A program made the translations under genes and the position numbers. Shown here one piece after another: positions 5,503-49,707 of a DNA stretch of 64,000 bases (positions are counted from its first letter, which is position 1; the number at the start of each line of letters is the position of its first letter). The stretch is from IMG/VR virus record IMGVR_UViG_3300006040_000001, positions 36,695-100,694 of that record; one strand, given 5' to 3'. Under the pieces are notes generated by a model. The model ran no database searches. It saw only the letters and a program-made list of their open reading frames with translations, and was not told the DNA's origin. The DNA comes from a virus.

Positions 5503-6738
5503 ATGTTAATTGCTTTAGAAGATATTGTCGATATCGACGATGACCTAGATGTGTTGGAAAAACTAGACGATCAATTTGCTATCGTAGGCGATGCCTTTAC
5601 TGACTTAGTCACAAGTGACGGCACAACGATGGAGATAGCCGCTACGCTAGAAGCATTATTACCCGGCGTTATTACTGAAAGTATGCCGATCAACAGCTTT
5701 ACTAAAGATCCATCGCAGACGAACTACGCGTTAACTATGGAAGGGATTGGCGCTACGATAAAAAACTTAATTAAAGCAGCCAGTGCAGCGATTGCTAAAT
5801 TAGCTAAGCGTATGTACGAGTGGCTAAAAAAGCTTTTCGGTAAAGGCTCTACTGCTGAACAAGGTAAAGAGAATGCCCGTAAGGCTGAGCGCAGTGGCGA
5901 AGAGCGTAGTAAAGCCGAGGATGACTTAGAGAAAGCCAAAGCCGAGGTACCTGACGAGCACAAGCACGCAGTAGATGACAAACTCAAAACGGATTTAGAT
6001 GTAGGGCTGCACAACGTAGGCGATGTTAGTCAGAACGCAGCACTAGCGAAGATGGCCGGTATGGTATCTATGTTTACGCATAATTACGCGACTAATTCAG
6101 TCTGGCTTAATGCTATTGATAAGTTCACTACTACAGCGATACGTGATAGTAATCTACAGCTAGCTGCTATTATGGCAGCAACCTCTAGCATAGGTCAGCT
6201 CAAAGATGCTAGTGAGCTAGATAGTATCCTAGCGAAACTACAAAAACCAGCCATCGGTATGTTAGATGATTTACTAGGTATCCCTGAGCTTAAGCAAGCT
6301 GTCTCTACAGCAGAATCTGATACAGATAAAGCTCGGGCTATCTATACGTTCCTACGCGACTCTACGACACTCGATCCTAAGTACGACTTTAAAAAGGTGC
6401 CTGAGTTTGATTATACAGCAGCTACGGATGTATTCGACCGTATTATGCAATATCAGCAAGGTCGCTTCTTAAGTCGCCTAGAGTTGTTCACTGAGTTGTG
6501 GGAATCCACTATTACGGAAATGGAAGCAGGAGTATCTGAGAAAACCGTATTAGATCCGGAGGCTACGCGTAAAATGATGTATACGTTCCGTGAGCTATTA
6601 AACGAACTATTAATGGTGAATCAGATCTTGCATATCCTGGTGGTCGCTATTAACCACTATTCTATAATGTTTATCGAAGCTGATATGAGTGCTATTTATA
6701 GCATTAAGAAAGCTGAAACAATCATCGGGACGGCATAA
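5503..6738 (+). CDS. Internal head protein paralog
   Basis: AGGAG RBS. ALED, TLEALLPG...MPINSFTKDPSQTNYALTMEG, then helix KRMYEWLKKLF. Confidence 0.65.
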   Translation: MLIALEDIVDIDDDLDVLEKLDDQFAIVGDAFTDLVTSDGTTMEIAATLEALLPGVITESMPINSFTKDPSQTNYALTMEGIGATIKNLIKAASAAIAKLAKRMYEWLKKLFGKGSTAEQGKENARKAERSGEERSKAEDDLEKAKAEVPDEHKHAVDDKLKTDLDVGLHNVGDVSQNAALAKMAGMVSMFTHNYATNSVWLNAIDKFTTTAIRDSNLQLAAIMAATSSIGQLKDASELDSILAKLQKPAIGMLDDLLGIPELKQAVSTAESDTDKARAIYTFLRDSTTLDPKYDFKKVPEFDYTAATDVFDRIMQYQQGRFLSRLELFTELWESTITEMEAGVSEKTVLDPEATRKMMYTFRELLNELLMVNQILHILVVAINHYSIMFIEADMSAIYSIKKAETIIGTA

Positions 6739-6775
6739 CCACTAAGGGAGGCCGTAGCCTCCCTTAGCCTATGCC
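6732..6775. terminator. Bidirectional hairpin terminator flanked on both strands by TATGCC
   Basis: CTAAGGGAGGC-CGTA-GCCTCCCTTAG (6742-6767) between convergent genes, with GGCATA at 6732 and TATGCC at 6770. Confidence 0.7.
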
Positions 6776-9724
6776 CTAAAATGATTTAGGTAAGTGGTTT
6801 ATGAATGTATTAACGACAGCGTCCTGCACCGCTAATGTTTGGTTAGAGAGAGATACTAGGCGTTTACCTACCACTGGCTGCATAGACGGATCTTTTAAAG
6901 TCACCGTTGGATACAGATCATTAGCAAATCCAGATACGTTGACTGACAGAACCTCGTCACCTAATGCTGCTTTCAACGTAGCCGTAATATCAGTAACACT
7001 AATGGTACTACGCTCCATAGCCGCTGCTAAGATATCTGCCGTACGTTCCGACAATGCCTCACGGATCGGTTGGTTTTCATAGATGTCTTGACGGACGTAA
7101 TAAGTAACACGGAATGTCTGTGCGGCAGGTATCTGTGCGTGCTGTTGATCATTAACAATAACATCCAGTAATCCGGTCGTCGTTTTCGGATAGTAGTAAA
7201 TCTCACTACGTTCCAATAAATTACCGGCAATAGTCTCCAGATCTACAACACACCAGTTAGTGATTAAATCGATCATCTCCTGTTTATAAGCTAACGTTGT
7301 CTCATTCGTAGCAAAATAATACCGCCCGTCAATTAAACATAAATCTAACTGACGTAACATACCCTGTACACCGCCTGCTAATACAGGATCGCCATTAGCA
7401 TCCATGACTACGTCACCGGCTTTATATTTATACACAGGATCGCCCAAACTATCCATTACTGGCGCACCCTTAGCGTGCAATACGGTAAAACCAAACTCAC
7501 CGGTATCGTTGTTATACGTCATGTTGATAGCACCCGTTAGCGGGTCACGCGCATAAACAGTCTCCGTATAGATAGCCGGAACGTCTACTGTATGTTTTAA
7601 ATACGTCAGAGCTCCTACAGCGCTCCTAGACCGCGTCCAGAGATGTTTTAGGTGCTCACCTACCTTAATGGTAATACGCTCTTGTGTAGCGCCTAAATAA
7701 ACGGATGACGGGGTGTAGCCTGGAAGTATGGTTTTATCTACAATAGCGTCGATGTCCGAAATACCTGCTCCACTGGGTTGGTGATCGCGGACTATGTAGA
7801 CTAAATCAAACTCTGTAGACAACGCCATCGGTGCCTGTGGTCCTGTGAGTGTAAGTTGATGCGCCTGATTTACATCATACGTCGTGTCTAAGTCAAACGA
7901 ATAGATGTAGCGTTTACCCACTGGCTTACCCGTACTACCATCAATAGGACTACGCAACACCCCATTAAAATAGACCCGTGTTTGCGTACCGGGTGGCACG
8001 TAACTTAACTGCAAAAATACCTGGTCTAACGCTAGGGCACTATACACATCGCTGACAGCTGCTTCGATTAATAACCGATAGCCACTACCAGTGGAGTTTA
8101 CTTCTACGCCGTAAGACAACGTACTAGCATCTACTAATAGTGCTGTGTTCGTCTGGAAAAAATACTTCGATGTAATGGATGGTTTATCTAAACGATAGAC
8201 ACGAGTAGTAAACTGGTTGTTAGCTACATCTAGTACGTAATAGAACGGCGTAAAATAATAATTACCGTCGTTGACCTGGTTAGCTAGTACATCCGGCGGC
8301 GTAACCAGCGGATCCAGTAAACGTAACCGCTCTGTATCAGTTACCACGCTTAACACACCATCTATTGATTTGAACAGAGTATTCGGTTTAATAGTCACCC
8401 GCTCACCATGGTTCTCAATCGTACCATATTGCACCAGGTCGGTTAGTTTGGATTCCAATAACCGGATAGCGCATCCAGCTCCTGATACCGTACTACTGTT
8501 AGTTGGCGCTGGTAAGGCACGCACCGCAATAAACTGACGGTCAGTAATATTATCCAGGTTAGTCACTACGTCATAACCTAGTGAACTGAGTACCGTAGAG
8601 AGCTGCGCCTGTGTGATAGGTAGTGTAGGGTTATTTAAACCATTCGTGATGACGCGTTTACGCAGCGTATCAAAACTGACGGCATTGCTACCCCCGGTAA
8701 TAGCCCCTTCCATAAACAGCGACACACCCGAGAACGTGCTTAATGGTGCGCTGTAAGCATTATCATTAACGGCATCATGATCTAACCACCGGGCACTGTA
8801 ACTAGTCGCCGGGTAACTCGATAGGTTAAGCTCCAGTGGCCCTTTAGTAGTATAGATATCGATCCGTAACGAGTCTTTAATACTACCGTTATTAAAATAG
8901 ATCTGTGGTACTTTTACAGCCAGTCGGGAATTTAACACTCGTAACACCACGGTAGGTGTGTTAGGGTCGTAGACTTGTTCCGTGTGCGTCGTACGGATCT
9001 CTGTCCAGTTCGAGTCAGCTGTCAGTTTAATAAAGGCGCGGCAATAATAGTATTGATCAGTGAAATCATATTCCTTATATAGCCCTGTGATGTTGTTTAA
9101 CTGTGCGACCTGCGTGGTAATCAACATTTGGCTGACAGGCATCGTGATCCGTAGAAACTTAGAACCACCGTGTGAACCCATACCCCAGTCTACGCGGTTA
9201 GACTCTAAAGACACAATCGGTGATTTACGACTGACATCGTAATAGAGACTTACCCCACCGCTCGGCAGTATCCGTATATCCAGTGGGTACTGCATCGTAA
9301 AGATCAGCCCAGCAATAATATACTCCGAGTGTCGAGGGATCGTGAGTTTATACGTACCGTCACCTACAGCTACGGCCTTAGCACGTATCTCATCCAAGGA
9401 CAACAACAACGTAAAACTCGTACGCGCCGGTGTAGAGAAACGATTCAAGAAATCGTCATCCGACATATGCAGATAGACGTCTTCATCACTACGGGCATTA
9501 GAGGCATAGAGTCGACGGACTAGAGTCTCGTCCTGCAACATCCCTGCACTGGCTACACTACAGGCAGCCTCCATTAAAAATGTAAACGGACTAGTAGGGT
9601 TAACAATCACCCGCGCTCCTAAGGATACATCTTCTAATGTATTTAGCATCAGGCGCTGCATGGCGACAGGATTACCGCGCAGCATATCAAATTTAGTAGT
9701 TAGATCAGCTATGGTAATAGCCAT
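6776..9724 (-). CDS. Virion structural (baseplate-type) protein, phiKZ gp87-like
   Basis: 982 aa. N-terminus NPVAMQR...NPTSPFTFLMEA...RRLY, size, minus orientation and synteny match the gp87-like gene as recalled. Confidence 0.65.
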   Translation of the reverse strand: MAITIADLTTKFDMLRGNPVAMQRLMLNTLEDVSLGARVIVNPTSPFTFLMEAACSVASAGMLQDETLVRRLYASNARSDEDVYLHMSDDDFLNRFSTPARTSFTLLLSLDEIRAKAVAVGDGTYKLTIPRHSEYIIAGLIFTMQYPLDIRILPSGGVSLYYDVSRKSPIVSLESNRVDWGMGSHGGSKFLRITMPVSQMLITTQVAQLNNITGLYKEYDFTDQYYYCRAFIKLTADSNWTEIRTTHTEQVYDPNTPTVVLRVLNSRLAVKVPQIYFNNGSIKDSLRIDIYTTKGPLELNLSSYPATSYSARWLDHDAVNDNAYSAPLSTFSGVSLFMEGAITGGSNAVSFDTLRKRVITNGLNNPTLPITQAQLSTVLSSLGYDVVTNLDNITDRQFIAVRALPAPTNSSTVSGAGCAIRLLESKLTDLVQYGTIENHGERVTIKPNTLFKSIDGVLSVVTDTERLRLLDPLVTPPDVLANQVNDGNYYFTPFYYVLDVANNQFTTRVYRLDKPSITSKYFFQTNTALLVDASTLSYGVEVNSTGSGYRLLIEAAVSDVYSALALDQVFLQLSYVPPGTQTRVYFNGVLRSPIDGSTGKPVGKRYIYSFDLDTTYDVNQAHQLTLTGPQAPMALSTEFDLVYIVRDHQPSGAGISDIDAIVDKTILPGYTPSSVYLGATQERITIKVGEHLKHLWTRSRSAVGALTYLKHTVDVPAIYTETVYARDPLTGAINMTYNNDTGEFGFTVLHAKGAPVMDSLGDPVYKYKAGDVVMDANGDPVLAGGVQGMLRQLDLCLIDGRYYFATNETTLAYKQEMIDLITNWCVVDLETIAGNLLERSEIYYYPKTTTGLLDVIVNDQQHAQIPAAQTFRVTYYVRQDIYENQPIREALSERTADILAAAMERSTISVTDITATLKAALGDEVLSVNVSGFANDLYPTVTLKDPSMQPVVGKRLVSLSNQTLAVQDAVVNTFINHLPKSF

Positions 9725-15126: not shown

Positions 15127-15158
15127 AGTGGTCTCCTTACGCGCGTAAGGAGACCACT
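15127..15158. repeat. Perfect 32-bp palindrome / hairpin
   Basis: AGTGGTCTCCTTACGC|GCGTAAGGAGACCACT. Confidence 0.85.
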
Positions 15159-15159
15159 C

Positions 15160-15199
15160 TCCTTTTATGCAGGAATTTGATCATGTCACAATTTACACA
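15160..15199 (+). repeat. 40-bp leader/start repeat copy A (TATG, RBS, first codons)
   Basis: TCCTTTTATGCAGGAATTTGATCATGTCACAATTTACACA, identical to 35985-36024. TATG is the phiKZ late-promoter motif. Confidence 0.85.
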
Positions 15200-16652
15200 G
15201 ATGCTTGGCATCCGCTTAGGTTTAGAAGATTTAGTCGACGAAGTCGCACCAGTGCCGACTCCGGGTGATGGTATTGATAGTGAAGTTACGGAATCGTTTA
15301 TCGCCACCGACAGCGCTGAATCTGAGGTAGAAGATACAGCGAGTAATATTGCTAAGTTAGAAGACACTACAGCATCCTTAGAGCGTATTGCATTTGCTCT
15401 TGAATCAATGAGTGGTCGTCAGCTTAGCGATGATGCGTTGGTGTTTTTAAATATCGGTATGGAAAATGCGATGCAGCCGTTTAGACCTGCTGCCGATCAA
15501 TCTACCGGATCCGGTGATTCTAAAGAAGCCAAAAAAGGCATCGTTGCTAAATTGATCGCTGCCTGGGATGCCTTCGTACAAATGATGAAGAAACTATGGG
15601 ATAGTATCTCCGGTTACTTCCAACGTTTGTTCAGCACAGCCGCCAGCATGCGTAAAAAAGCAGCAGCTATTTTAGCCAGTGCCCGTAGTGTTAAAGACAC
15701 CGCCGGCGGTAAAAAGTTCGAGATGAACGCTAACGAAATTCAATGTGACGGCAAGATCCCAGCTCCGGCTGAGTTCGTATCCAAGCTTACCGAGTTAGCT
15801 AAATCCACTACCGATGGTTTAGTCGGCCAATATTCATTAGCAGGCCGCGGTTACATCGAGGATCTTATTGCCAAAGTAAAATCTATTGGAGACTCAGTAC
15901 CCGACGATGCAACCTTTGATTCACACGGCGATAAAAAGGCAGCGTTCTTCGCTATGAAGGATGTAACTAACCTAAAAGAAGCTATGGTTAACGGCGCTAT
16001 TAAGATCTCCTACGGTCTTGGTATTACTGCCGATGCCAGTGCCGATGTCAAAAAAGACGCCGGTGAGGCTACTTACGTTAAAATGTCTAAATCACCGTTT
16101 ATTGGTGATCGTGTGTTTGTATTTACTTGCATAAAAGACGCAAAGCCTTTGGACGGCGGTAAGCATAGTGACTTCGTAGCCTGGTGCCGCAGTATTAAGT
16201 TCAGTGTGGTAGACAGCGGTGCAACGCGTATAGAGCGCGGTGAAGTTGAGGCATTGTCTGTGGAGCAACTTGCCACAGTTTGCGGCGACGTAATGAATAC
16301 CTGCGACGCTATCCTTAAGTTCAAAGACATCTGGTTCAAAGAATATAAAACGTTCTCTGACTACAACGATGCCTTCCGCGACCAGATGAAAAAGATAACC
16401 AACATTTATTTAACGGATACCGAAAAGCAAAAGCTCAATAATAACGGTGGTAAGATGTCATTTATGGATCTTATGGGTCTGGATTTTATCCAGGCTCTTA
16501 AAGCTCTTAACAGTGGCGTAGCTACTACTATTAGCGGGTTTGGTCGTTTTGAAAACGAACTATGCAAACAAGCAATGCGTAATTCCCACGCAGCGTTAAC
16601 GTATGCTGAACGTTCGTTGAAAGAACATACTACACCAGCTAAAGCTGAGTAA
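15183..16652 (+). CDS. Internal head protein, gp93-like paralog
   Basis: N-terminus MSQFTQMLGIRLGLEDLVDE shared with 13679 and 36008; SLER, ALES and GMEN sites. Confidence 0.7.
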   Translation: MSQFTQMLGIRLGLEDLVDEVAPVPTPGDGIDSEVTESFIATDSAESEVEDTASNIAKLEDTTASLERIAFALESMSGRQLSDDALVFLNIGMENAMQPFRPAADQSTGSGDSKEAKKGIVAKLIAAWDAFVQMMKKLWDSISGYFQRLFSTAASMRKKAAAILASARSVKDTAGGKKFEMNANEIQCDGKIPAPAEFVSKLTELAKSTTDGLVGQYSLAGRGYIEDLIAKVKSIGDSVPDDATFDSHGDKKAAFFAMKDVTNLKEAMVNGAIKISYGLGITADASADVKKDAGEATYVKMSKSPFIGDRVFVFTCIKDAKPLDGGKHSDFVAWCRSIKFSVVDSGATRIERGEVEALSVEQLATVCGDVMNTCDAILKFKDIWFKEYKTFSDYNDAFRDQMKKITNIYLTDTEKQKLNNNGGKMSFMDLMGLDFIQALKALNSGVATTISGFGRFENELCKQAMRNSHAALTYAERSLKEHTTPAKAE

Positions 16653-16657: not shown

Positions 16658-16697
16658 TACTCATTACAGCGACCTAGGTCGCTGTAATGAGTATGCC
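16658..16697 (+). terminator. Perfect 36-bp palindrome overlapping TATGCC at operon end
   Basis: TACTCATTACAGCGACCT|AGGTCGCTGTAATGAGTA (16658-16693), TATGCC at 16692-16697. Confidence 0.7.
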
Positions 16698-16748
16698 GTA
16701 ATTATAAACTAATCGATATTATACTACGATTCCAACTACTCTGAATGA

Positions 16749-21756: not shown

Positions 21757-23331
21757 ATGCCACAGGTAATATTAGAAATACCTAACATTGAAGAGAACAT
21801 AGCTCGACCAGTCGTACACCAAGTTATCCGGGAGCTAGCTACGCGCTTAGGCATGCCCGTAGAGACCCGTATACGTCAATTAGGCAGTGGTAAAGCGTTA
21901 CCGGTAGTAGGCAGTACCATGGACGACAAACACGCCGTAAATCGCCTCCCTGGAGATCAATACATCGAGATCAAACCGGATGAGACGTATGACGAGAACT
22001 ATGCGATGTCTGTAGCAGTTACCTACCCTGAACATCTCGCTGTGTTTAATGAACCGAAGCTCGGTATATTGATGCGACCTGTGTATCAGCGTATTAACGT
22101 AAGTGTAGATGTCAAATGCGTAGCGACGGATAAAACCACAGCAGATAACTGGGTGTCTACCATTAAGCGGCGTTTCAGCCAACGGGTCGTAGAGAACAGA
22201 CATTCCCTAAATTACACCTACCCTATACCCGTTCAATACATGGCCATCCTCATGGAGCTACATCGGTTACGTGAAGCCAATCACGGGTATGGCGAGTCTA
22301 TAGGTCAGTGGCTAGCTAATCACTACACGATCTTAGATACAGCGGTTACTGACCAAGCTGGACATAACCCATTACTGGTTATTAAAGAAGCCCAACTCGA
22401 TGTATTAGGCTGGTTTGATTTTACCGATAGCCCGCCTAAGGTAGAGCGTGAAACAGACTCAGGTGCGTGGAGTATATCGTTTGGTTATACGTTTGGTTAC
22501 GATCGTGTAGAATCCGTTATGTTACGTTACCCGCTAATGGTGCACAACCAAATGCTAGATAACCGGTACTATGATGACATTCCGCTAGATCTCTTAACTA
22601 ATTACATGCAGCAACGTAATGTGTCAGCAGCAGCCATGTACGATGCTACTTATCGTGATACGCCCATCCGTAGTATATTCGCAAACCCCGGCATCTCTAT
22701 TCCGCTGTTCGATGACTGGCTACCGAGTTATAAACACGCCGGTTATTTTACGTTGTTGCGTATTATGCTACAGGTAGATCCTACTAGCCCTAATGCGCTA
22801 CTATCACTCGGCCTGTTAGGTGACTGGTCTATAGATCCGGCGGCGTTGGCTTATATGTCCAGTAATCCGTTAGCTATCACTAGACCTTACGAATCTGTGT
22901 TTAATATACAGCTCCACCGTGGTACGGATTATTTAGCCAGTGATAAGTTTATAGTATCTAATACGCTGGATCTACATTACGCTGAGTCTTTAGATGAGCG
23001 GTGTTGCTATCACCTTACGCTCAGTATGCTAGCTAATGTACGTCAACTTAGCTACACGGCTATACTAGCTTTATGCGAGCACGGTCAGTTTACAATAGAT
23101 TATTTAACTGCTACTGTACCCGAGCTAGTAAGTAGTGGTAGTCGCCAGGTCATATTACCTGATGGTACTATACGCTACACGGATTTACCTACGCTGTTAC
23201 CCGATGGGACTATCATGCCACGGGACTTACAACGCACGATCGATAAAATATCTATTCGCCCCAGTAGTAATATTAATGATTACTCATGGCGTCTAGTAAA
23301 TGAATTCATTGTATCAGCCCATCGGAGCTAA
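21757..23331 (+). CDS. Virion structural protein, phiKZ gp98-like
   Basis: AGGAGG RBS; RPVV, YPLMVHNQ and GISIPLFDDWLP motifs; synteny. Confidence 0.55.
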   Translation: MPQVILEIPNIEENIARPVVHQVIRELATRLGMPVETRIRQLGSGKALPVVGSTMDDKHAVNRLPGDQYIEIKPDETYDENYAMSVAVTYPEHLAVFNEPKLGILMRPVYQRINVSVDVKCVATDKTTADNWVSTIKRRFSQRVVENRHSLNYTYPIPVQYMAILMELHRLREANHGYGESIGQWLANHYTILDTAVTDQAGHNPLLVIKEAQLDVLGWFDFTDSPPKVERETDSGAWSISFGYTFGYDRVESVMLRYPLMVHNQMLDNRYYDDIPLDLLTNYMQQRNVSAAAMYDATYRDTPIRSIFANPGISIPLFDDWLPSYKHAGYFTLLRIMLQVDPTSPNALLSLGLLGDWSIDPAALAYMSSNPLAITRPYESVFNIQLHRGTDYLASDKFIVSNTLDLHYAESLDERCCYHLTLSMLANVRQLSYTAILALCEHGQFTIDYLTATVPELVSSGSRQVILPDGTIRYTDLPTLLPDGTIMPRDLQRTIDKISIRPSSNINDYSWRLVNEFIVSAHRS

Positions 23332-26668: not shown

Positions 26669-26965
26669 GTGACTGAACCATTAGATCACATCACCGTAAC
26701 AGTCGAGGCTACGGATTTAACGACTCAATGGCGTATCGCTCTAAACGGCGATACCGTAGGCTACCGTTACCAACTACGATTGATACTTACATCCGGTAAG
26801 TTAAAGTATATGGCAGTAGCTGTAGATACCGATACTAACCTAGCTGACCTAACCCCTCATGCATTAGTAGAAATATTAACAGCACTTACTGCCATAATGC
26901 AGCACCAACTACAGTCAACCAGCTTTTTTATTTTAGGTATAGAACCACACGGAGTTAAGAAATGA
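26669..26965 (+). CDS. Hypothetical protein
   Basis: GTG start just after the upstream stop; ATGA coupling to tmk. Confidence 0.4.
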   Translation: MTEPLDHITVTVEATDLTTQWRIALNGDTVGYRYQLRLILTSGKLKYMAVAVDTDTNLADLTPHALVEILTALTAIMQHQLQSTSFFILGIEPHGVKK

Positions 26966-27606
26966 TTCATAAGAGCGGATATTTTATTACGGTAGAAGGC
27001 GTTGACGGCTCGGGTAAAACCGGTGTAGTCGTACCGGCTCTCTGTGAGTTTTTAAACCAGCATCTTATTAAACCCGTAGTAACACGCGAACCCGGTGGAA
27101 CGCCGTTCGCAGAGGCTATACGTACTTTGTTTAAAAGCGATGTATGTAATGATGTAGATCACACAGCGCTTGCGTTATTAGTCAGTGCCGCTAGACGCGA
27201 CCATGTTACACGTGTAATCATGCCGGCCTTAGCTAATGGATCTGTAGTAGTTAGTGACCGCTACATAGCGACCACCGTAATGTATCAGTATAACGCTAAA
27301 GACCTAAGCCGTATTATCGAAACAGGATGTGCTGGGTTGTTGCCAGACTTAGTAATCCTACTAGATATTCCTTACGATGTATACTGCGCTAGACTAGCGG
27401 AACGCGTGGCTCTAGATGCGTCTGAGGAAGCCCACAACCACTTAGACATTATGGACGCCGAGTTGTTTAATCGACGTAGGGCTGCGCTAATACAGTTTCA
27501 TAACTTGTATCCTGTGCACAGCGTATTAGTGGATGCTACGGCTAGTAAAGAGGACGTGGTTAAAATCGTTAACCAACATGTACAGCGTGCTATGGGATTC
27601 ACTTAA
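26962..27606 (+). CDS. tmk: Thymidylate kinase
   Basis: P-loop EGVDGSGKT, TREPGGT, SDRY and PDLVILLD motifs. Confidence 0.92.
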   Translation: MIHKSGYFITVEGVDGSGKTGVVVPALCEFLNQHLIKPVVTREPGGTPFAEAIRTLFKSDVCNDVDHTALALLVSAARRDHVTRVIMPALANGSVVVSDRYIATTVMYQYNAKDLSRIIETGCAGLLPDLVILLDIPYDVYCARLAERVALDASEEAHNHLDIMDAELFNRRRAALIQFHNLYPVHSVLVDATASKEDVVKIVNQHVQRAMGFT

Positions 27607-27608: not shown

Positions 27609-27640
27609 CTAGGGGCTACCAAGCCCCTAGACCTTATGCC
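27609..27640 (+). terminator. Hairpin followed by TATGCC
   Basis: CTAGGGGCT-ACCA-AGCCCCTAG, then ACCTTATGCC. Confidence 0.6.
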
Positions 27641-27724
27641 GCGATTCTAAATAATTATAAACCTAAATTACACACGAACGCCTACTATAGCGTTCTACTA
27701 ACAACCTATACAGAGATCACTAGC

Positions 27725-27988: not shown

Positions 27989-28071
27989 TCTCAGATACAT
28001 ATTACCTAAGTGAGAGAAGAACTAAGCCTATCTTTACTCACTTATCTTTAACTAGGCTTTGGAGCTACACC
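27980..28071 (+). promoter_or_regulatory. Early promoter plus pseudoknotted 5' leader, copy 1
   Basis: CATATTAC at 27998-28005. 27980-28028 is identical to 49308-49356. Stem 28007-28044; loop AAGCCTA pairs with TAGGCTT at 28053-28059; GGAG SD at 28061. Confidence 0.75.
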
Positions 28072-28704
28072 ATGTTTGCACAATACATTCGTAACACAGT
28101 ACGCAGCACATTGACCACTACACGCTCGGTGGTGTTGGATAGCGACTGTAACCCAATCTGCGCAGAGATTGTAGGTAACTTGAAATGCACTCGCCAGCTA
28201 GCCACTAACGGCGACTTGGTCGTCAAACGTACATACTCGGCTGAAGGCGTAACCACGCTGTTCTTCCGTGTGGAGTGGGCAGAACTAGTGCCTACCACTG
28301 AAGGCACTACTCAGCTGAAAGATGCTATCGAGATGCATCCTGCCTTAGCAGCATTCATGGATCTCAAAGGTCCGGATCTGTTACCAGAGCGCTTCGTCAA
28401 GGCAAACTCGATCGCTGATTATGTAGCCGCCACCAGCCGCCGTAGTGAGCGCGACGCACTGATCCGCAGTGATTTGAACGTTGCGGTACGCAGCAGTATC
28501 CGCGATCTGGCGCATATTGCGTTAGAGTCAGCTGATGCGCTGGTAGCAGCAGTGGAGGGCGAGTTGATTAAAGGTCACCTCCCAGTGGGTTCGATCAACT
28601 CACCTTACGAAGCCGTAGGTGCTGAAGCAGCACGTCGAATGATCGGAGCGGGTGTGCGGTTCGCACGCGGTCTAACCACCGTAGCGCGGATGCACATCAA
28701 GTAA
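28072..28704 (+). CDS. Hypothetical early protein
   Basis: GGAG RBS, 210 aa, with its own promoter and terminator. Confidence 0.7.
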   Translation: MFAQYIRNTVRSTLTTTRSVVLDSDCNPICAEIVGNLKCTRQLATNGDLVVKRTYSAEGVTTLFFRVEWAELVPTTEGTTQLKDAIEMHPALAAFMDLKGPDLLPERFVKANSIADYVAATSRRSERDALIRSDLNVAVRSSIRDLAHIALESADALVAAVEGELIKGHLPVGSINSPYEAVGAEAARRMIGAGVRFARGLTTVARMHIK

Positions 28705-28705
28705 G

Positions 28706-28756
28706 GGCATAATATCCAGAGCGCCCTAGGGCGCTCTGGATACACTCTTTTTTTTT
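28706..28756. terminator. Bidirectional terminator: perfect 30-bp palindrome, T9 tract on +, TATGCC on -
   Basis: TATCCAGAGCGCCCT|AGGGCGCTCTGGATA at 28713-28742, between convergent genes. Confidence 0.75.
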
Positions 28757-28762
28757 GGTTTA

Positions 28763-30070
28763 TTATGGCCTACGTAGCGCTATACTTACCAAACTTACAG
28801 ACTGGCCACCGTCAGCATTACGCACCGCCGTAGGTGCGTTTGCCGTAGATTCAAAATGGTATTGCCCTGGCGCGTCAATACAGTTTAAATCCGTACCCGC
28901 CGGTAGTGTATCACCCACAGGTAAAAAAGGCGCGTCATCCATCATCACCATGCAGTGTGTATTACCCCGTATTCTACGATACTCTACCAGAGCGGCTTCT
29001 ACCGTAGCTGATGGGTCTTCGTCATTAGGATCCAAACCAATATAGATACCGTGTTGTGTCTCCGTAGGTGACTGTATAACCATCACGTTTAGCTCATCCG
29101 ACGTAGAACGTAACTCCTTACACCAGGCGGTCGCTTCGGTTAAATCGTCAGCATATACTACCGGTGCCGTAACGATGCTATCTGCAATAACCGCTAAATT
29201 AGCCATGTCGTTGCTTAAGTGACGCGTCTTAAGATCAGCTAACTGATACGCTACGTCTAATGCCACACAGAACCGTGATGCGTGCTCTAACCCTACGTTG
29301 TATTCCTTACGCAATACGCGGTTAGCGCCGCGTACTTTAGGGTCTATAACAAAGTTGCTGTAGGTTATAACTCCGTCGGCTGCTATGTCAACATTTAAAC
29401 CACACCGCGTACAATGCATAGATCGGTTGCTATGCTCAGTAGCCGGTGATACCGCACCTAAGTTAACACATTGGAAATCGTTGTCCAGTACAGGCTTAAT
29501 CAGGCTACCATCCGCTTCATGTGTTTCCGTACCATCTGCATCAGTATACCTTACCGGCACTAATAAACCACGACCTACACTGGCCGTAACGTATGGATTA
29601 GGTGCTGCATTAGCCTTCTCTAAGATAGCTTGCTTTAGCTCTAGTGCCACTGCCGGATTATTCCGAGCATAAAGTGGCGGGCCTATCTGTACTGCCCCGT
29701 CTACGATGTATTCACGTTGGATAAATGCATCAGGGTCTAACACTATCGAATCGATAGTAAGTAGTGTTTTAGTAGCCTCACCGTGATCCATCCCCCGGCC
29801 TAATAACGGCTCATCCATAATAAGGTCGTGGTGACCGGCACTGTGACTATCAGGGGCAAAAACAGACGGTGTGATCGCTGCTAACTCACCCCATGCAGCT
29901 ACATCATCAGGTGATAAACCTTTGGGCTCATCGATCAATCCCGGCACTACATTAATAGTACGCGGTCGATCACCATCACAGGCATCAACACCCATCCAAT
30001 CTTTAGCGCCGCATTTAGTACAGCGATCATCATCCCAGTCATGTCCTGGGGTAGGTTTATGTGGTTGCAT
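28763..30070 (-). CDS. Mosaic hypothetical protein with two CxxC knuckles
   Basis: HDW...CTKCG and MHCTRCG; 435 aa. Confidence 0.55.
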   Translation of the reverse strand: MQPHKPTPGHDWDDDRCTKCGAKDWMGVDACDGDRPRTINVVPGLIDEPKGLSPDDVAAWGELAAITPSVFAPDSHSAGHHDLIMDEPLLGRGMDHGEATKTLLTIDSIVLDPDAFIQREYIVDGAVQIGPPLYARNNPAVALELKQAILEKANAAPNPYVTASVGRGLLVPVRYTDADGTETHEADGSLIKPVLDNDFQCVNLGAVSPATEHSNRSMHCTRCGLNVDIAADGVITYSNFVIDPKVRGANRVLRKEYNVGLEHASRFCVALDVAYQLADLKTRHLSNDMANLAVIADSIVTAPVVYADDLTEATAWCKELRSTSDELNVMVIQSPTETQHGIYIGLDPNDEDPSATVEAALVEYRRIRGNTHCMVMMDDAPFLPVGDTLPAGTDLNCIDAPGQYHFESTANAPTAVRNADGGQSVSLVSIALRRP

Positions 30071-31338: not shown

Positions 31339-31371
31339 AAAAACAGTGTAGCCGGCACTGTTTTTTTTTTT
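31339..31371. terminator. Bidirectional intrinsic terminator
   Basis: AAAAACAGTG-loop-CACTG plus T11, between convergent genes. Confidence 0.6.
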
Positions 31372-33720: not shown

Positions 33721-35922
33721 ATGTCTAAACTTACCGCACGTTCAACACCTAATCGCGATTTACGCGAAGTGGTTAATACGTTAAAAACCAAAATTGCACA
33801 GGGCGGCTCGGCCTTTGTTTCAGCTGACGATACGAAGAATGTATTGTCGTTAGAATCATTGACACCGGGTCAGTTAGAAAACTCTGCTTATAAACACAAC
33901 GAGTTAGTTACCGTTGTTAAAGAAGCGTTTAAAGCTCAAGGCTTCGGCATCGAAGACATTAAAGCCTTTACGCCACAACAATGGGAAGCGGGTGCTATTG
34001 CATTGGCTGCTTGTGGTAATCCATTGGCATACGCTCATAAAGCGATGACCATGGAAAACTTGAGTGCGTTGGCGAATGAAAACACGCAGATTATTGACCA
34101 CGGCATGGAATCAGGTTTTGACTATCGCGCCGAGCACAAAATTGCGTTAGAAGCATTTGATGATCGTAACTTGGTAGACAACTTAGCGTTCAACGTTATG
34201 TTCAACGTTGCTGCTGCACGTCAAGACGAATTCGGCGAAGCGTTTTTCCCAACCACGGTAGTTACGCCTGACCAATCCGGTGTAGCGGTAAGCGTTCGTA
34301 AAATTCAGGTTTACAACGAAGTTCGCCATAGTTTGTCCGGCAAACCTACTGACTTTAACATGATGAATTTGTTAGATGCGGTGGTTGATGCTAGTATTTT
34401 GGCTAACACATCTACAGATGCTGTGCCATACTACGTTACTGGTAATGCCGAAAACAACGCTAACTTCTGCGCAGTAGTAACACCGCACGACGTTACTGTT
34501 AACGGTGCTACATTTAAAACCGCACCGTTGTTGCCGAACATTGATATTGGTTTGTTAGGCTTAGCGCAAAACCCAGGCGTAACACCTGCTGGTCAGTTCG
34601 ATAGTTTCGATGCGTTGGATCACCGTATTACGTTGAACCAACTCTACATCTCTGTTACTAGTACTGCTGCTGCCGTTACCAGCATTATTCCGGTGGTGAC
34701 TGAGTCCTTACCGCGTACGCAATACCACAAGTCCAATGAAGGACAAGAACGTGAGATGCAGTTAAACTTCATCACCACGGACATTCCTTTAACTGGCTTG
34801 ACCAAAAACACAGCTAATGTTGCTGCTCCTGCATTGGTGTATTTAGCCGATCCGTTGCGTGCTGATTGGATTGTGCGTTTGAAGATCTCTGTTAGTGGTC
34901 GTGCTAATTTGCAATACGGTACAGTTTCTGCTACTCCAGCATTAGTTGTTATCGATAGCGCATGGGTTGCACACGGTGACGGTACGTTTGATCCAGTTAC
35001 ACCAGCCGAACTCACCGCGTTGAAAGCTGAACTCGTTAGTATGACTGTGGTTGGTTACGACTTAGGCGCTAAGCGTTCTAACACTAACCGTCGCACATTA
35101 GGTTTGTTGGTTAACTCCATCGAGCAAAATGAAATCCATTCGATTCCATTAGGCGCACCGATTACTGCTAACAACCCAGCAACGCAAACCAAAACCAACA
35201 CGGATATTACTGCGCCTATTACAGCCGCACGTATTCGTAACTCTAACAACGCGGTATCTAAGTTGTTGCAGTACGCTGCTCAGCTCAGTGCGTTGAAAGT
35301 GTCTTACGACCGTAAAACTCCAGTACCTTCTATCCAAGGTATTGCGCGTCACGTGTTGCGTCCGTTCTACGAGCATAGCGCCTTCGATGCTGTTAACACT
35401 GTTAACTCGATCAAATCACAAGACCGTGCATTGGATTTATCCGCTGCAATGATTAACCGTCTCCGTGAAATGATTTACCGCATGTACCGTGACTCCGGTT
35501 ACCAAATTGCGTTAGATGCACACACAGGCCACACAGGCGAGCGTCCAATTGTATTGATCGGTACAGATCCAGTGATTCAACGTCACTTGATCATTCCTGG
35601 TGACACACGTTTGGCTTCTATTGGTTTCGAGCATCAAGTCGTTACCACTATGGACCAACGTATGTATGGTAAGATCTTCGTTACCTTAACACGTGCCAAT
35701 CAGAAAGGCGTAGATCCATTAAGCTTCGGCTTCATGGCTTGGATGCCAGAGCTTGCTACTAGCTTACAGATTACACGTAACAATTCTACAACGATTGAAT
35801 CCATGGTTCAACCACGTTCTGTACACGTTAACACATTGCCTTTGTTGTTGGAAATCGATGTGACTAACTTGGAAGAAGCGATCGGTGATCGTGTTTCCAT
35901 TCCGTTCAAAACTGTTCCTTAA
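33721..35922 (+). CDS. Major capsid protein, phiKZ gp120-like
   Basis: 733 aa. Propeptide ending IALE|AFD, then AARQDEFGEAFFPT, RSNTNRR.LG, VLIGTD and QPRSVHVNTLP; strong codon bias. Confidence 0.88.
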   Translation: MSKLTARSTPNRDLREVVNTLKTKIAQGGSAFVSADDTKNVLSLESLTPGQLENSAYKHNELVTVVKEAFKAQGFGIEDIKAFTPQQWEAGAIALAACGNPLAYAHKAMTMENLSALANENTQIIDHGMESGFDYRAEHKIALEAFDDRNLVDNLAFNVMFNVAAARQDEFGEAFFPTTVVTPDQSGVAVSVRKIQVYNEVRHSLSGKPTDFNMMNLLDAVVDASILANTSTDAVPYYVTGNAENNANFCAVVTPHDVTVNGATFKTAPLLPNIDIGLLGLAQNPGVTPAGQFDSFDALDHRITLNQLYISVTSTAAAVTSIIPVVTESLPRTQYHKSNEGQEREMQLNFITTDIPLTGLTKNTANVAAPALVYLADPLRADWIVRLKISVSGRANLQYGTVSATPALVVIDSAWVAHGDGTFDPVTPAELTALKAELVSMTVVGYDLGAKRSNTNRRTLGLLVNSIEQNEIHSIPLGAPITANNPATQTKTNTDITAPITAARIRNSNNAVSKLLQYAAQLSALKVSYDRKTPVPSIQGIARHVLRPFYEHSAFDAVNTVNSIKSQDRALDLSAAMINRLREMIYRMYRDSGYQIALDAHTGHTGERPIVLIGTDPVIQRHLIIPGDTRLASIGFEHQVVTTMDQRMYGKIFVTLTRANQKGVDPLSFGFMAWMPELATSLQITRNNSTTIESMVQPRSVHVNTLPLLLEIDVTNLEEAIGDRVSIPFKTVP

Positions 35923-35948: not shown

Positions 35949-35980
35949 TTACGCGACTGTACTAATGTACAGTCGCGTAA
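35949..35980 (+). terminator. 14-bp stem hairpin after the capsid gene
   Basis: TTACGCGACTGTAC-TAAT-GTACAGTCGCGTAA. Confidence 0.6.
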
Positions 35981-35984
35981 TCTA

Positions 35985-36024
35985 TCCTTTTATGCAGGAA
36001 TTTGATCATGTCACAATTTACACA
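35985..36024 (+). repeat. 40-bp leader/start repeat copy B
   Basis: Identical to 15160-15199. Confidence 0.85.
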
Positions 36025-37351
36025 ATTACTGGGCTCTCGCTTAGGTTTAGAAGATTTAGTCGAAGATGCTGATTTATCAGCGGTAGTAACTGATGGCGAT
36101 GATACCGTAGAGGCCGCTGTAAGCGCTGCACAAACTGACGAAGCAGCCGTAGTAGACGCAGAAGCTCAGTCCGATACTCTAATGAATGACGTAGTGGCTC
36201 TAGAGTCTATTGCGTTTATCTTAGAGCATTCATTAGCCACAGGCGGTATGAATAAACACGGCATGGCGTTAACTAAGGTTACGTTACGTGGTATTGGTAG
36301 TCGTATGGGTTTAGAGCACGCCGTAGTAGCATCGCTAGAATCTATCGCAGCTAGTAAAGATAATGTCGCTATCACTACAGCTACTTTAGAATCCGTTAAA
36401 GATATGCTTAAAGGCTGGTGGGCTAGTTTTAAATCCATGGTCGAAAAGCTATTCAAACGTATCCGTGATTGGGTTAACAGTTTATTAGATGTTGTCCCGC
36501 GTATTAAAAAGCGTGCCGAAGCCATTAAAGCCAAAGCCAAGACCTCAGGTAAACCGTTTGGCGCCAAGACTGTAAAATACGGTAGCATCTCACGTATATC
36601 GATCGGTAACGAGAAACCAAAGCCGAACGATCTATGTCGCACGTTAGGTCAGCTACGTGATTATACACGCGATATGCTTAGCAGCGATCACTTAGGTGAA
36701 ACAGAGAAAGCATTAACTGCGTTGTTTAATCGTGGTGCGTCAGACAAAGTAACCGCTGCCGATATTAGCGAGTTAAACAAGAAGTTTAACGACGTAGTAA
36801 AAGCACTACCAGCTAAATATAAAGCTACTATCAAAGATACGTCTGGTCTTAATGGCGTGCTGTCGTATCATACGCAGACATTCCCAGGTGATTGTGCTGT
36901 CTCGATTGCTAGTGGCGGTGCAATGGATAAAAACGCTACTGACAAATGGTCCGTCAGTGAAGTTAAGATGCAGGTGATTGATCTCTACGCAGGTAAAACG
37001 CGTGTTACCAATTCCGGCGAGTTAGATATGATGGAGTCGAATCACGTAGAGGATACACTCAATGCCGTATTAGCGCTGTGTGATATTATCTCCGGGTATA
37101 AGAAGGGCTTGGATGCGCGTGACAAATCGAAGCAGTCGTTAATGGCCGCTATCGAGAAAGCTGTCAACGGCGCTAATAAAGCTGCGGAAGGGTCAGCTAA
37201 TGATACAGAGCTTGCTAAGACGTATCGCGATGCTGCCAAAGCAGCTAGCACACTCTGGAACAAAAGCCTTAGCCTAGATGCTAAATTCATATCTTACTTA
37301 ACGACCACTATGATGGCATGCCTAAGTTACGCCGATAAATGCGTTGCTTAA
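36008..37351 (+). CDS. Internal head protein, gp93-like paralog
   Basis: MSQFTQLLGSRLGLEDLV; ALES, GLEH, SLES, TLES; aligns along its length with 13679 (KGWW...PRIKKRA). Confidence 0.7.
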   Translation: MSQFTQLLGSRLGLEDLVEDADLSAVVTDGDDTVEAAVSAAQTDEAAVVDAEAQSDTLMNDVVALESIAFILEHSLATGGMNKHGMALTKVTLRGIGSRMGLEHAVVASLESIAASKDNVAITTATLESVKDMLKGWWASFKSMVEKLFKRIRDWVNSLLDVVPRIKKRAEAIKAKAKTSGKPFGAKTVKYGSISRISIGNEKPKPNDLCRTLGQLRDYTRDMLSSDHLGETEKALTALFNRGASDKVTAADISELNKKFNDVVKALPAKYKATIKDTSGLNGVLSYHTQTFPGDCAVSIASGGAMDKNATDKWSVSEVKMQVIDLYAGKTRVTNSGELDMMESNHVEDTLNAVLALCDIISGYKKGLDARDKSKQSLMAAIEKAVNGANKAAEGSANDTELAKTYRDAAKAASTLWNKSLSLDAKFISYLTTTMMACLSYADKCVA

Positions 37352-37372: not shown

Positions 37373-37414
37373 TTACTAGACGGCAGACATCGGTCTGCCG
37401 TCTAGTAATATGCC
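37373..37414 (+). terminator. 16-bp stem hairpin plus TATGCC
   Basis: TTACTAGACGGCAGAC-ATCG-GTCTGCCGTCTAGTAA-TATGCC. Confidence 0.7.
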
Positions 37415-37436
37415 GTATCGTACTAATATTTAGGTA

Positions 37437-38664: not shown

Positions 38665-40272
38665 ATGGATACCGCTCTCTTCGCCGAAATACAGCGTTCC
38701 CTGCCGAAGTTTAATAGACGCATTACACGAGGGTTTGCTACCGAAGAGCTAAAAGGTGTGGAAGATTATATACAGCGTTTGATACGCTGTGCCGAGTTGA
38801 GATTCCCGCCAGGGTTAACGTATATGCGCTGTGAGCGCTGTACGCCTACTGAAGAATACAACTTCGCTACTGCTAAGAAAACTACTAAGCAGTATTACGA
38901 ATACAGTCAAACCGATGTGTATTTGATGAAGTACTACTTTGAATACAAAGGCGTGCCATTACGGCCGCGTTATCTCTATTTACCGTTTGTAGATGACGGC
39001 GGCATTATTCGTATCATGGGTAACCGGTTTAGCATTAGTCCCGTACTAGCTGATATCGCCGTGAGCGCGGGTGATGATAACGTATTCATACCGCTGAACC
39101 TAGACAAACTAACCTTTAGACGGGTACTACACCACTATGTCGTCGATGGCAAACGTGTAGGCGTAAGCGTGGTGCATAGTGAGGTATATCATCGATCCAA
39201 GAAATCTCGTGTAGGGCAGAAACGTACCATTAATGCCCTCTCCACGCTAGCGCATTATCAATTCGCTAAGTGGGGGTTACAGCAAACCTTTGCCCGATAT
39301 TTAAACACGGAGATAATGGTAGGTAACCCTGAGTACATCAACCACATTAATTTCCCTATAGACGAATGGGTTGTGTGTGAATCCACGCAGGTGAAACCCT
39401 ACGGTAACAAAAATAAATTTTACGTAGGTACTGATATCCGCATCGCTATTAGGCGTGAGCACTATAGCGCTAGCGCTTCGGGATTAATCGCAGGCTTTTT
39501 CTATATCGCCGATAGATTCCCTGAGCAAATGAATCCAGAATACGTAAACAACGAACGGTTCTGGCGTGAGCTATTAGGGCATGTTATTTTCGCTAGCGAA
39601 GAATCGGTAGGTAAGCTACTTAACAAAGTAGACGGACACATCGAATCACTCGATGGATACATCGATGCGATGTCGCAGGAATGGCTAAAAGAAGATAATG
39701 TTTTCGTGAACGATCTATACGAGTTATTCCAACACGTCATAGACACGTATAGTGAACGCACAGCCAACGCCGCTGCGACTAGCTCTACAATGTACGGTAA
39801 ACGTCTCATGGTGTTACGATACGTAATGATCGATGTGATCAAAGCGATCTTTAACATGATGTTCGGATTACAGACAGCCGCTAAGAAAGGGCTTACTGAG
39901 AACGACATCAACAAAATCATGGATACGCATTTTAAACCGCATATCATCCACCGTATTAACCACCGCCACGGCGAAGTATCTAGCGTATCTAATCCATCGC
40001 CCTGCATGAGTTTCAAAGTCACAAGTAACATCGTACTGCAAACGAATATTACTAGCGGTGCTAGCGCCGCTAAAACCAATACGATTACCTCAGCTAATAT
40101 ACTGCACTCTAGTATTGCTGAGATTGGTCAATTTAACAACCTACCCAAAGGAGAACCCACCGGCCGTAAACGGTTTAACCCTTACGGCGAAATTGATGAG
40201 CGTAACATTACTGTACAGCGTGAGCGTACGGCTGCTCTATTAAACCGCGTACAAGCGGACATTGAACGTTAA
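38665..40272 (+). CDS. Non-virion RNA polymerase beta-subunit N-terminal fragment, phiKZ gp123-like
   Basis: YLYLPFV...G..FSISPVLAD, MYGKRLMVLRYV, LHSSIAEIG...LPKGEPTGR..FNPY; size and synteny. Confidence 0.75.
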   Translation: MDTALFAEIQRSLPKFNRRITRGFATEELKGVEDYIQRLIRCAELRFPPGLTYMRCERCTPTEEYNFATAKKTTKQYYEYSQTDVYLMKYYFEYKGVPLRPRYLYLPFVDDGGIIRIMGNRFSISPVLADIAVSAGDDNVFIPLNLDKLTFRRVLHHYVVDGKRVGVSVVHSEVYHRSKKSRVGQKRTINALSTLAHYQFAKWGLQQTFARYLNTEIMVGNPEYINHINFPIDEWVVCESTQVKPYGNKNKFYVGTDIRIAIRREHYSASASGLIAGFFYIADRFPEQMNPEYVNNERFWRELLGHVIFASEESVGKLLNKVDGHIESLDGYIDAMSQEWLKEDNVFVNDLYELFQHVIDTYSERTANAAATSSTMYGKRLMVLRYVMIDVIKAIFNMMFGLQTAAKKGLTENDINKIMDTHFKPHIIHRINHRHGEVSSVSNPSPCMSFKVTSNIVLQTNITSGASAAKTNTITSANILHSSIAEIGQFNNLPKGEPTGRKRFNPYGEIDERNITVQRERTAALLNRVQADIER

Positions 40273-48176: not shown

Positions 48177-48509
48177 ATGGACATAGTAACCGTTGTATTA
48201 CTATTGGCGTTGGCTGTAGTGGCGTATCGCCAACACATCGTAGCGCTATTGGACGAGTTTGAGTTAATCAACGGACCAGTCATCTACTTAAATACGGAGG
48301 CTATAGCTACTTATAGACATCGTGAGTTAAGAGACGTATTGATTCGCGTAGAATTAGGCAAAGGGTCTAAGCTGTCCGTGGTTTATTTTAAGGCACCGCT
48401 TTACTTTAAAGAAGTAACGCCTAATAAACAACAACGCTTATTAAAGCGTACAGCCCGTATTTCTGGGATGCGTGTAAAGACCATTAACCAAATTGACTAC
48501 GTTAGATAG
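48177..48509 (+). CDS. Small protein with N-terminal membrane anchor
   Basis: AAGGAG RBS; IVTVVLLLALAVVAY. Confidence 0.6.
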   Translation: MDIVTVVLLLALAVVAYRQHIVALLDEFELINGPVIYLNTEAIATYRHRELRDVLIRVELGKGSKLSVVYFKAPLYFKEVTPNKQQRLLKRTARISGMRVKTINQIDYVR

Positions 48510-48519: not shown

Positions 48520-48551
48520 GCCAGTGCTCCTAGGAGCACTGGCACTATGCC
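48520..48551 (+). terminator. Perfect 24-bp palindrome plus TATGCC
   Basis: GCCAGTGCTCCT|AGGAGCACTGGC-AC-TATGCC. Confidence 0.65.
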
Positions 48552-48578
48552 CTCATTATAAACCCACTGGAATCAATC

Positions 48579-49304: not shown

Positions 49305-49307
49305 GAC

Positions 49308-49398
49308 TCCAATTAATCTCAGATACATATTACCTAAGTGAGAGAAGAACTAAGCCCATCTTCCCTCACCTCACTTTAACTGGGCTGGAGTTACAATC
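49308..49398 (+). promoter_or_regulatory. Early promoter plus pseudoknotted 5' leader, copy 2
   Basis: CATATTAC at 49326-49333; loop AGCCCA pairs with TGGGCT at 49381-49386; GGAG SD at 49387. Confidence 0.75.
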
Positions 49399-49668
49399 AT
49401 GTCAAATTCAATCATTGTTATGGTCTATCAAGATATTAGCGTATTAGAAGAAGCGTTAAAGCAGTTTAAAGTAGTAACCACGCGCAGCGGCTATACATGG
49501 CTCACTGTGCCAGTGGGTGAACGCACACGCGCTGAGGTTGAGCAAATTGCTGCTAAGCATTGTTTGCCTACTAGCAGTCATCAAGCTGCGTTCGTGCTTA
49601 ACGGCAAAGAAGAGCCATGGACGTTTACAACGCCTACGGCTGCTATCTTAGAGCTAGCTCAGGCATAA
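49399..49668 (+). CDS. Small hypothetical early protein
   Basis: GGAG RBS, 89 aa. Confidence 0.65.
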   Translation: MSNSIIVMVYQDISVLEEALKQFKVVTTRSGYTWLTVPVGERTRAEVEQIAAKHCLPTSSHQAAFVLNGKEEPWTFTTPTAAILELAQA

Positions 49669-49707
49669 TGGCATAGTACTCCACTCCCGTTAGGGAGTGG
49701 GGTACTA
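49662..49707. terminator. Hairpin between convergent genes with tandem TATGCC on the minus strand
   Basis: TAGTACTCCACTCCC-GTTA-GGGAGTGGGGTACTA at 49674-49707; GGCATA at 49662 and 49670. Confidence 0.65.

Follow-up and report, generated by a model that had tools for sequence, protein, structure and literature searches.

A hairpin with a TATGCC tail as a probable transcription terminator of an uncultivated phiKZ-like jumbo phage

Introduction

In phage phiKZ, 133 RNA 3' ends have been mapped by ONT-cappable-seq, and 61 of these terminators share the motif 5'-BCCYCCCCHWWDGGGRRGGBYTTATKYYGT-3', which the authors characterized as a stem-loop with a TTAT region after it (Putzeys et al. 2024, PMC10914365). 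The terminator motif A of phage 201phi2-1 strongly resembles the phiKZ motif (Poppeliers et al. 2024, PMC11512511). Here we describe hairpins followed by the tail TATGCC at the ends of transcription units in IMG/VR virus record IMGVR_UViG_3300006040_000001, a 100.7-kb viral contig that is ~36% complete according to CheckV. The window referred to throughout is its right-hand 64 kb (64,000 nucleotides, positions 36,695 to 100,694 of the record), and positions are those of the window. We consider it probable, at roughly three chances in four, that the hairpin with TATGCC(G/C)T forms the transcription terminators of this phage, and that these belong to a conserved Chimalliviridae type with the family consensus TT-TATG-CC-GT.

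When K is read as G and YY as CC, the published phiKZ tail becomes TTATGCCGT, which is identical to the motif of this contig. A tail of the form (T)TAT-K-YY-GT lies immediately 3' of the stem, as TATGCC(G/C)(T/C), at 11-12 sites of the contig, and a matching logo is obtained from the loci of 79 relatives and from phiKZ. On this evidence the hairpin with TATGCC is assigned to the known phiKZ type of terminator, here in a U-poor form, and the motif as such has already been published. In phiKZ, in 201phi2-1 and in the present phage, which belong to the same virus family and have the same split multisubunit RNA polymerases (RNAPs), a GC-rich hairpin at gene ends is followed within a few nucleotides by (T)TATG-YY-GT, the element is two-sided at convergent genes as expected of a bidirectional terminator, and a copy occupies the same position after the capsid gene. 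By contrast to both described phages, the T's before TATG are mostly missing here and YY is fixed as CC. The stems also differ from those of phiKZ in that they are not of the CCCTCC/GGGAGG type; they are unrelated in sequence and often perfect palindromes. RNA 3' ends were mapped in phiKZ and 201phi2-1, whereas this phage is known from its sequence alone.

In canonical intrinsic (Rho-independent) terminators of bacteria, the hairpin runs straight into a stretch rich in U, in which typically 5-6 or more of 8 nt are U. The element described here is similar in its stable GC-rich hairpin, in the short element that follows and in a predicted release of the RNA 5-9 nt after the stem, but the U-tract is replaced by a sequence-specific tail with a G/C-rich distal part.

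TATGCC tails beside hairpins of the contig

All perfect stems of at least 8 bp on the 100.7-kb contig were catalogued, which gave 59 hairpins with 118 sides, and TATGCC was counted when it started at -4 to +8 of the stem end. It was present on 11 of the 118 sides against 0.44 expected (Poisson P=2e-12), and a twelfth copy lies at an imperfect hairpin outside the window. The hexamer as such is not enriched, with 37 copies in the window and 40.7 expected. The full motif is TATGCC(G/C)T, represented by six copies of TATGCCGT and four of TATGCCCT in addition to GC and AT variants.

At the nine named sites in the window (Table 1), TATGCC starts at -2 to +5 nt relative to the end of a perfect, GC-rich stem of 8-16 bp with a predicted RNA folding free energy (dG) of -14.5 to -27.8 kcal/mol. 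Every TATGCC hairpin stands just 3' of a stop codon on the same strand, and the element is restricted to the ends of transcription units. A preliminary description of the window had reported TATGCC beside hairpins at eight operon ends and its absence from six hairpins within operons (2479, 5462, 12163, 44859, 46490, 61298). All coordinates of the former proved correct, and the latter indeed lack the hexamer. At hairpin 28713 it had assigned a T9 tract to the + side and TATGCC to the - operon, and both are present.

The tails are poor in U, with 2-4 U in the first 8 nt compared with 6-7 at the T-tract sites of the contig, in agreement with the earlier proposal of a terminator that lacks a U-tract. 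The U-rich tract of a canonical intrinsic terminator was found at none of the TATGCC sites, and the RNA:DNA hybrid predicted there is not weak, with 3-5 G/C in 8 bp. Because of the low number of U's, predictors based on U-tracts would not call these sites intrinsic terminators, whereas the equivalent sites of AT-rich phiKZ pass such a predictor; the absence of a U-tract is the main difference between the two phages. Ordinary hairpins with a T-tract also occur on the contig, for example at 28748-28756 (the + side of hairpin 28713) and at 31339-31365.

At the four co-directional sites of the window, TATGCC is found on the sense side only. A separate promoter-like element lies between the tail and the next gene at all four.

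Conservation in relatives

We examined 79 loci (1.54 Mb, GC 30-70%) around the capsid genes of diverse relatives. Capsid identity is at most 44%, and the comparison at the DNA level is therefore one of positional conservation, not of nucleotide alignment or covariation. In an unbiased test for words enriched where strong hairpins end on their 3' side (20-nt segments, 586 sides), the top 4-mer was TATG (239 of 586 sides, 28.9 expected), the top 5-mer TATGC (134, 6.3 expected) and the top 6-mer TATGCC (84, 1.7 expected), with TTTTTT behind it (54, 4.9 expected). A logo aligned on TATG reads GG-n-TT-TATG-C-C-G-T-T. The tail was seen in 64 of the 79 loci. No GC bin between 30 and 70% lacked it, and in the most GC-rich bin 52% of the sides had it. 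In a control with phage T4, a TATG tail was present on 0 of 16 hairpin sides. The preliminary description had suggested looking for the motif 3' of hairpins across the genome and in relatives, and it is enriched there both on the contig and in the relatives.

In the 95-145 kb region of phiKZ, TATG was found on 17 of 30 hairpin sides against 2.3 expected, and the hairpins concerned include the one after the capsid gene (gp120) and those at the convergent junctions gp125/126 and gp129/130. By contrast, the distant clades L065-L067, L083 and L086 (25-32% capsid identity) have no TATG tails and carry classical T-tracts strictly on the sense side, which also validates the strand calls.

Two trivial causes of the association were considered and rejected. 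Chance or base composition is ruled out by the P value on the contig, by the independence from GC content and by the lack of sites in T4. Simple extension of the palindrome, with CATA pairing with TATG, fails as the main cause because the four co-directional window sites are one-sided, and it is also countered by unequal spacers on the two sides of hairpins. At 6732..6777, for example, the spacers measure 4 and 2 nt, which is not expected of a simple palindrome extension. The offsets of the tails on the two sides are only mildly correlated (17 equal, 9.6 expected).

Many intergenic hairpins are perfect DNA palindromes without a true loop, the central 4 nt being self-complementary as well. The most frequent centre is CTAG (5462, 16658, 28713, 48520), and GTAC (2479), GGCC (12163), GCGC (15127) and TATA (62407) also occur. 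Palindromes with CTAG, GTAC, GGCC or GCGC centres, together with the frequent two-sided CATA...TATG arrangements, would suit an element acting at the DNA level, in which palindromes flanked by CATA/TATG are bound or cleaved by a phage protein (in genome organisation, replication or as a homing or spreading repeat) and the link to gene ends is secondary. We regard this as very improbable: the stems share no sequence and the tail alone is conserved, one-sided tails follow gene polarity, and the motif coincides with mapped RNA 3' ends in two phages.

Stop signal or late promoter

Late promoters of phiKZ require a TATG core, with the transcription start site (TSS) at its G, and no conserved bases were found 3' of this core (Yakunina et al. 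2015, PMC4666361). The hairpin tails share this 4-nt core, T(-3)ATG(+1), and a homologue of gp123, the subunit that reads it, is encoded in the window (PMC4666361, PMC12809450). One could thus argue that TATG(CC) is a late promoter, starting at G directly after a plain hairpin terminator, which restarts the next gene or drives antisense RNAs at convergent junctions. The gp123 pocket is kept in this phage, and a ribosome-binding site (RBS) with a start codon follows 13-20 nt after hairpin and TATG at 57367, 15127, 35949 and phiKZ gp96. TATG is known not to suffice by itself, and a neighbouring palindrome that melts easily might in principle assist. Several observations nevertheless make this explanation unlikely.

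The modules are concentrated at convergent junctions and almost absent from divergent ones. In phiKZ, a strong hairpin was found at 18 of 26 convergent junctions, 14 of them with TATG, compared with 1 of 25 divergent junctions. In the pooled loci, the share of hairpin sides with TATG was 55% at convergent junctions, 47% on the sense and 33% on the antisense side of co-directional junctions, and 23% within genes. The orientation of the capsid gene is certain, and sense and antisense could therefore be compared directly after it. A hairpin lies within 260 nt after the capsid gene in 52 of 73 distinct loci, and TATG is on the sense side of 33 and on the antisense side of 13 of these 52. The stems at this position are unrelated in sequence, and the conserved tails read TTTATGCCGT, TTTATGCTGT or TTTATGTCGT. 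In the pooled loci, the distance from the stem to the first base of the tail is mostly between -4 and +4 nt, which places the G 4-8 nt after the stem. This is the distance at which multisubunit polymerases release RNA at intrinsic terminators. The concentration at convergent rather than divergent junctions, the sense bias after the capsid gene and the fixed distance from the stem fit a stop signal.

The sequence context of TATG differs as well. Hairpin-linked TATG is followed by C in 54% and C in 63% of cases and then by G and T, whereas TATGs without a hairpin 8-60 nt upstream of genes are followed by C in 13% and 24%, with no GT. The validated phiKZ promoter P119L has no hairpin and reads TATGTAGA, without the CCGT extension. 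Late promoters thus have neither an upstream hairpin nor conserved bases after TATG, whereas the hairpin-linked element has CCGT and sits at unit ends, including convergent junctions, where seven sites face antisense DNA. At the co-directional window sites, the separate promoter-like motif before each downstream gene also speaks against a promoter in the tail. In phiKZ, 45 hairpin sides with TATG point antisense into a gene, while no more than 4 antisense RNAs have been reported with a defined TSS (PMC10914365). Systematic antisense late promoters, which the preliminary description had put forward as the alternative to its own reading, are therefore disfavoured, and its proposal of a terminator-type signal at the ends of transcription units is supported by the published 3'-end motif and by the distribution over junctions.

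Some observations weigh against the terminator interpretation. Antisense sides of co-directional junctions are also rich in TATG (33% in the pooled loci, as given above, and 19 antisense compared with 19 sense sides in phiKZ), which a purely directional tail does not predict, such that a bidirectional design, an extension of the stem by CAUA/UAUG or another role would be needed. T-runs, unlike TATG, are biased to the sense side by 41:10. Part of the antisense TATG is accounted for by 28 co-directional hairpins flanked on both sides, and a further part may be explained by the gene calls in the metagenomic loci, which are crude (longest open reading frame) and, judged from the T-runs, may misassign ~20% of strands. 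It is also possible that CAUA 5' of the stem has a role of its own. In 201phi2-1, a second motif that lengthens the stem accompanies stronger termination (PMC11512511). At the sites shortly upstream of start codons (57367, 15127, 35949 and phiKZ gp96), a promoter or a dual role is conceivable. The mapped 3' ends of phiKZ could arise from processing rather than termination, and the assignment in this phage is based on sequence data.

Polymerase specificity and processing

The preliminary description had proposed two terminator grammars, one per polymerase. Under such a code, TATG tails would end units of the non-virion RNAP (nvRNAP), and T-tracts would end early units of the virion RNAP (vRNAP). 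This was not borne out in phiKZ: when early units were defined over the whole genome by TATATTAC early-promoter sites, TATG was found on 12 of 21 hairpin sides of early units and on 59 of 143 others (Fisher P=0.40). On this contig, the ends of early units (28072-28704, 49399-49668 and others outside the window) are T-rich and never carry TATGCC, although these sites are few and their classification was made partly by eye.

Eight terminators of 201phi2-1, five of which combine motifs, are strongly active in Pseudomonas chlororaphis in the absence of infection (PMC11512511), which indicates that host RNAP or host nucleases are at work. This lends no support to the specificity for phage RNAP suggested in the preliminary description. 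In an alternative reading, the tail is an RNA processing signal: an RNase E-like enzyme of the host or an endoribonuclease encoded by the phage would cleave at UAUG|CC or after it, and the hairpin would protect the new 3' end. Neither 3' ends from ONT-cappable-seq nor reporter terminator traps can separate termination from cleavage followed by decay (PMC10914365, PMC11512511), and a host nuclease could likewise account for activity in uninfected cells. However, the same tail is used across very different hosts and GC contents, which would suit a phage-encoded reader better than diverse host nucleases, and the fixed distance between stem and tail matches the geometry of termination by multisubunit RNAPs. 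To our knowledge, no nuclease with specificity for UAUG|CC has been described, which also counts against processing. Overall, we consider processing slightly less likely than the already unlikely late promoter.

The predicted early-type promoters of the contig share a recurrent motif, (A/G)TA(C/T)ATATTA(C/T)(C/T)TAA, which resembles the phiKZ early promoter core TATATTAC and occurs on the + strand at 27998, 49326, 37437, 42958 and 16749 as well as outside the window. Two copies lie within an identical ~49-bp leader (27980-28028 and 49308-49356) in front of small genes that end at putative bidirectional terminators. A different motif, (A/C)T(T)ATAAAC(C), is found between TATGCC tails and the next gene at 16701, 27654 and 48555, and intergenic copies on the contig stand 13-52 nt upstream of several gene starts; these may be promoters of a second class, perhaps a middle one. 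Outside the window, a unit driven by an early promoter ends in the hairpin at window coordinate -14613 (genome ~22081-22125), which has the variant tail TGTGCCCTATTTTT, with A changed to G in the TATG core, and a T-run.

Phage identity, candidate reader and proposed mechanism

By its protein matches, the phage of the window is identified as an uncultivated phiKZ-like (Chimalliviridae) jumbo phage. The major capsid protein at 33721-35922 is of the PhiKZ type (PhiKZ_MCP, Pfam PF25620, E=2e-183). The 982-amino acid (aa) product of 6776-9724 (-) shares 35-38% identity with virion proteins of Xanthomonas phages RTH11 and LucasX, of PhiPA3 and of phiKZ-like phages. A full-length homologue of phiKZ gp123, the beta-like subunit of the nvRNAP, is encoded at 38665-40272 (+) (30% identity, E=7e-89), a few genes after the capsid gene and syntenic with phiKZ. 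The capsid, gp123 and virion-protein matches together place it among the phiKZ-like phages with split multisubunit RNAPs. Closer relatives, with 59-68% identity, are present in protein databases.

In the mechanism that we propose, RNAP would read into the hairpin, stop and release the RNA at the G-CC of the tail, ~5-9 nt beyond the stem, and the conserved tail rather than a U-tract would supply the determinant for pausing and release in this phage. We infer this role for the tail because it persists where the U's are lost. The two-sided GGCATA-hairpin-TATGCC copies would act as bidirectional terminators at convergent gene pairs.

In phiKZ, it is a pocket beneath the lobe of the core subunit gp123, and not the sigma-like gp68, that holds the non-template TATG of late promoters (IUCrJ 2026, PMC12809450). 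The homologue at 38665-40272 is hence a candidate reader of the TATG tail. Its pocket is kept: Ser144, Phe151, Lys158, Lys190, His331, Ser334 and Gln466 are identical, and positions 185 and 406 are aromatic. In a first comparison for co-evolution of tail and pocket, L065-L067, among the clades that use T-tracts only, carry S334D and Y406L, and L083 and L086 keep the pocket. Our preferred explanation of how the tail acts, held with lower confidence than the terminator assignment itself, is sequence-specific pausing while TATG of the non-template strand moves past the pocket that the gp123-like subunit forms under its beta-lobe; the pyrimidine-G signal at which multisubunit RNAPs generally pause may contribute. 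The hairpin would form in the RNA exit channel, and the beta-lobe would capture TATG and stall the polymerase 4-8 nt after the stem. Since the gp123-like core subunit, unlike a sigma factor, never leaves the enzyme, such capture would be possible during elongation. That one pocket reads both the terminator tail and the late promoter, such that the start signal doubles as a stop signal and both share TATG, is an idea we consider possible but doubtful. If true, reading by the pocket would account for the persistence of the tail at 30 to 70% GC despite the loss of the flanking T's.

Other sequence-specific signals for pausing or termination include the class II signal ATCTGTT of T7 RNAP, the sigma70-dependent pauses at -10-like elements and the elemental pause G-10/Y-1/G+1. 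In all of these, as proposed here, a short DNA or RNA sequence that is not a U-tract stalls the polymerase, and in the sigma-dependent pauses a promoter-like non-template element is read again during elongation. The polymerases and sequences differ, however, and in the present phages the link between TATG and pausing is hypothetical.

The present data extend what has been published on the stem-loop and its TTAT region in four respects: the tail persists at all GC contents, it holds few U's in this phage, its sequence context differs from that of promoters, and it occurs at convergent junctions. Taken together, these four properties point to TATG-YY-GT, and not U-richness, as the conserved determinant. 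The hairpin with TATGCC(G/C)T would thus be a reliable marker of the ends and strand of transcription units in uncultivated phiKZ-like phages, in particular where terminator predictors based on U-tracts fail. The testable question that arises is how sigma-embedded split multisubunit phage polymerases terminate and what part the promoter-reading pocket plays. What remains of special interest is the identity of the stop tail with the TATG start signal of the polymerase.

Individual sites and neighbouring features

The sites of the window are listed in Table 1.

Table 1. Putative terminators and related hairpins in the window
Feature	Span	Strand	Hairpin	TATGCC start	Context and layout
Putative bidirectional terminator	6732..6777	both	6742-6767; 11 bp, loop cgta, dG -19.6/-21.4	6770 (+), 6732 (-)	Convergent junction of gene 5503-6738 (+) and virion-protein gene 6776-9724 (-); GGCATA 6732-6737 (= - strand TATGCC), hairpin, TATGCCCT 6770-6777
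Putative terminator	16658..16699	+	16658-16693; 16-bp perfect palindrome, CTAG centre	16692 (+)	After gene 15177-16652; TATGCCGT (16692-16699) overlaps stem end by 2 nt; 3' of it promoter-like ATTATAAAC (16701), early-like TATATTATTAA (16749), next gene 16815
Putative terminator	27609..27642	+	27609-27630; 9 bp	27635 (+)	After gene 26962-27606; hairpin, acct, TATGCCGC (27635-27642); then ATTATAAAC (27654) and early-type promoter (27998) before next gene 28072
Putative convergent-junction terminator	28704..28758	both	28713-28742; 13-bp palindrome	28706 (-)	- side, end of gene 28763-30070: TATGCCCT (28711-28704); + side: cactc + T9 (28748-28756), ending small early-promoter-driven gene 28072-28704
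Putative terminator	37373..37416	+	37373-37408; 16 bp	37409 (+)	After gene 36002-37351, the gene after the capsid gene; hairpin, directly then TATGCCGT (37409-37416); early-type promoter GTATATATTATCTAA (37437) before next gene 37470
Putative terminator	48520..48553	+	48520-48543; 10-bp palindrome, CTAG centre	48546 (+)	After gene 48177-48509; hairpin, ac, TATGCCCT (48546-48553); then ATTATAAAC (48555) before next gene 48579
Putative terminator of 907-aa gene 49713-52436 (-)	49660..49705	-	49681-49700; extendable to 49676-49705 with one mismatch	49670 (-), doubled 49662 (-)	Doubled - strand tail TATGCC-AT-TATGCC (49675-49662); + side: no TATG, only distant T6
Hairpin + tctatccTTTTATGCAGG	35949..35998	+			Directly after capsid gene 33721-35922; family-type tail TTTATGC, second C absent; runs into RBS and start of gene 36002
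Hairpin + TATGAGGA	57367..57404	+	14-bp stem		Tail directly after stem; start codon 57399-57401

Doubled tails such as that after hairpin 49681-49700 are also found in the relatives L046, L034 and L038. Five further hairpins, absent from the preliminary description, carry TATG without CC: the tail is TTTTATGCAGG at 15127 and 35949, TATGAGG at 57367, TATGG at 48013 and TATGAC at 62407. The position of the hairpin after the capsid gene (35949) is conserved in relatives. At 57367, a dual role as terminator and late promoter is conceivable.

An identical 25-nt module, CCTTTTATGCAGGAATTTGATCATG, is present at 15159-15185 and 35981-36010, after two different hairpins (15127-15158 and 35949). It is common to the two sites because the downstream genes, 15177-16652 and 36002-37351, are paralogues. 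Their products have near-identical N termini (Q-M/L-LG-x-RLGLEDLV) and resemble internal head proteins.

Both the TATG tail and the T-tract are absent from the six hairpins within operons, and these hairpins lie 10-25 nt upstream of an RBS and a start codon. They may be attenuators or structures that stabilize or process RNA.

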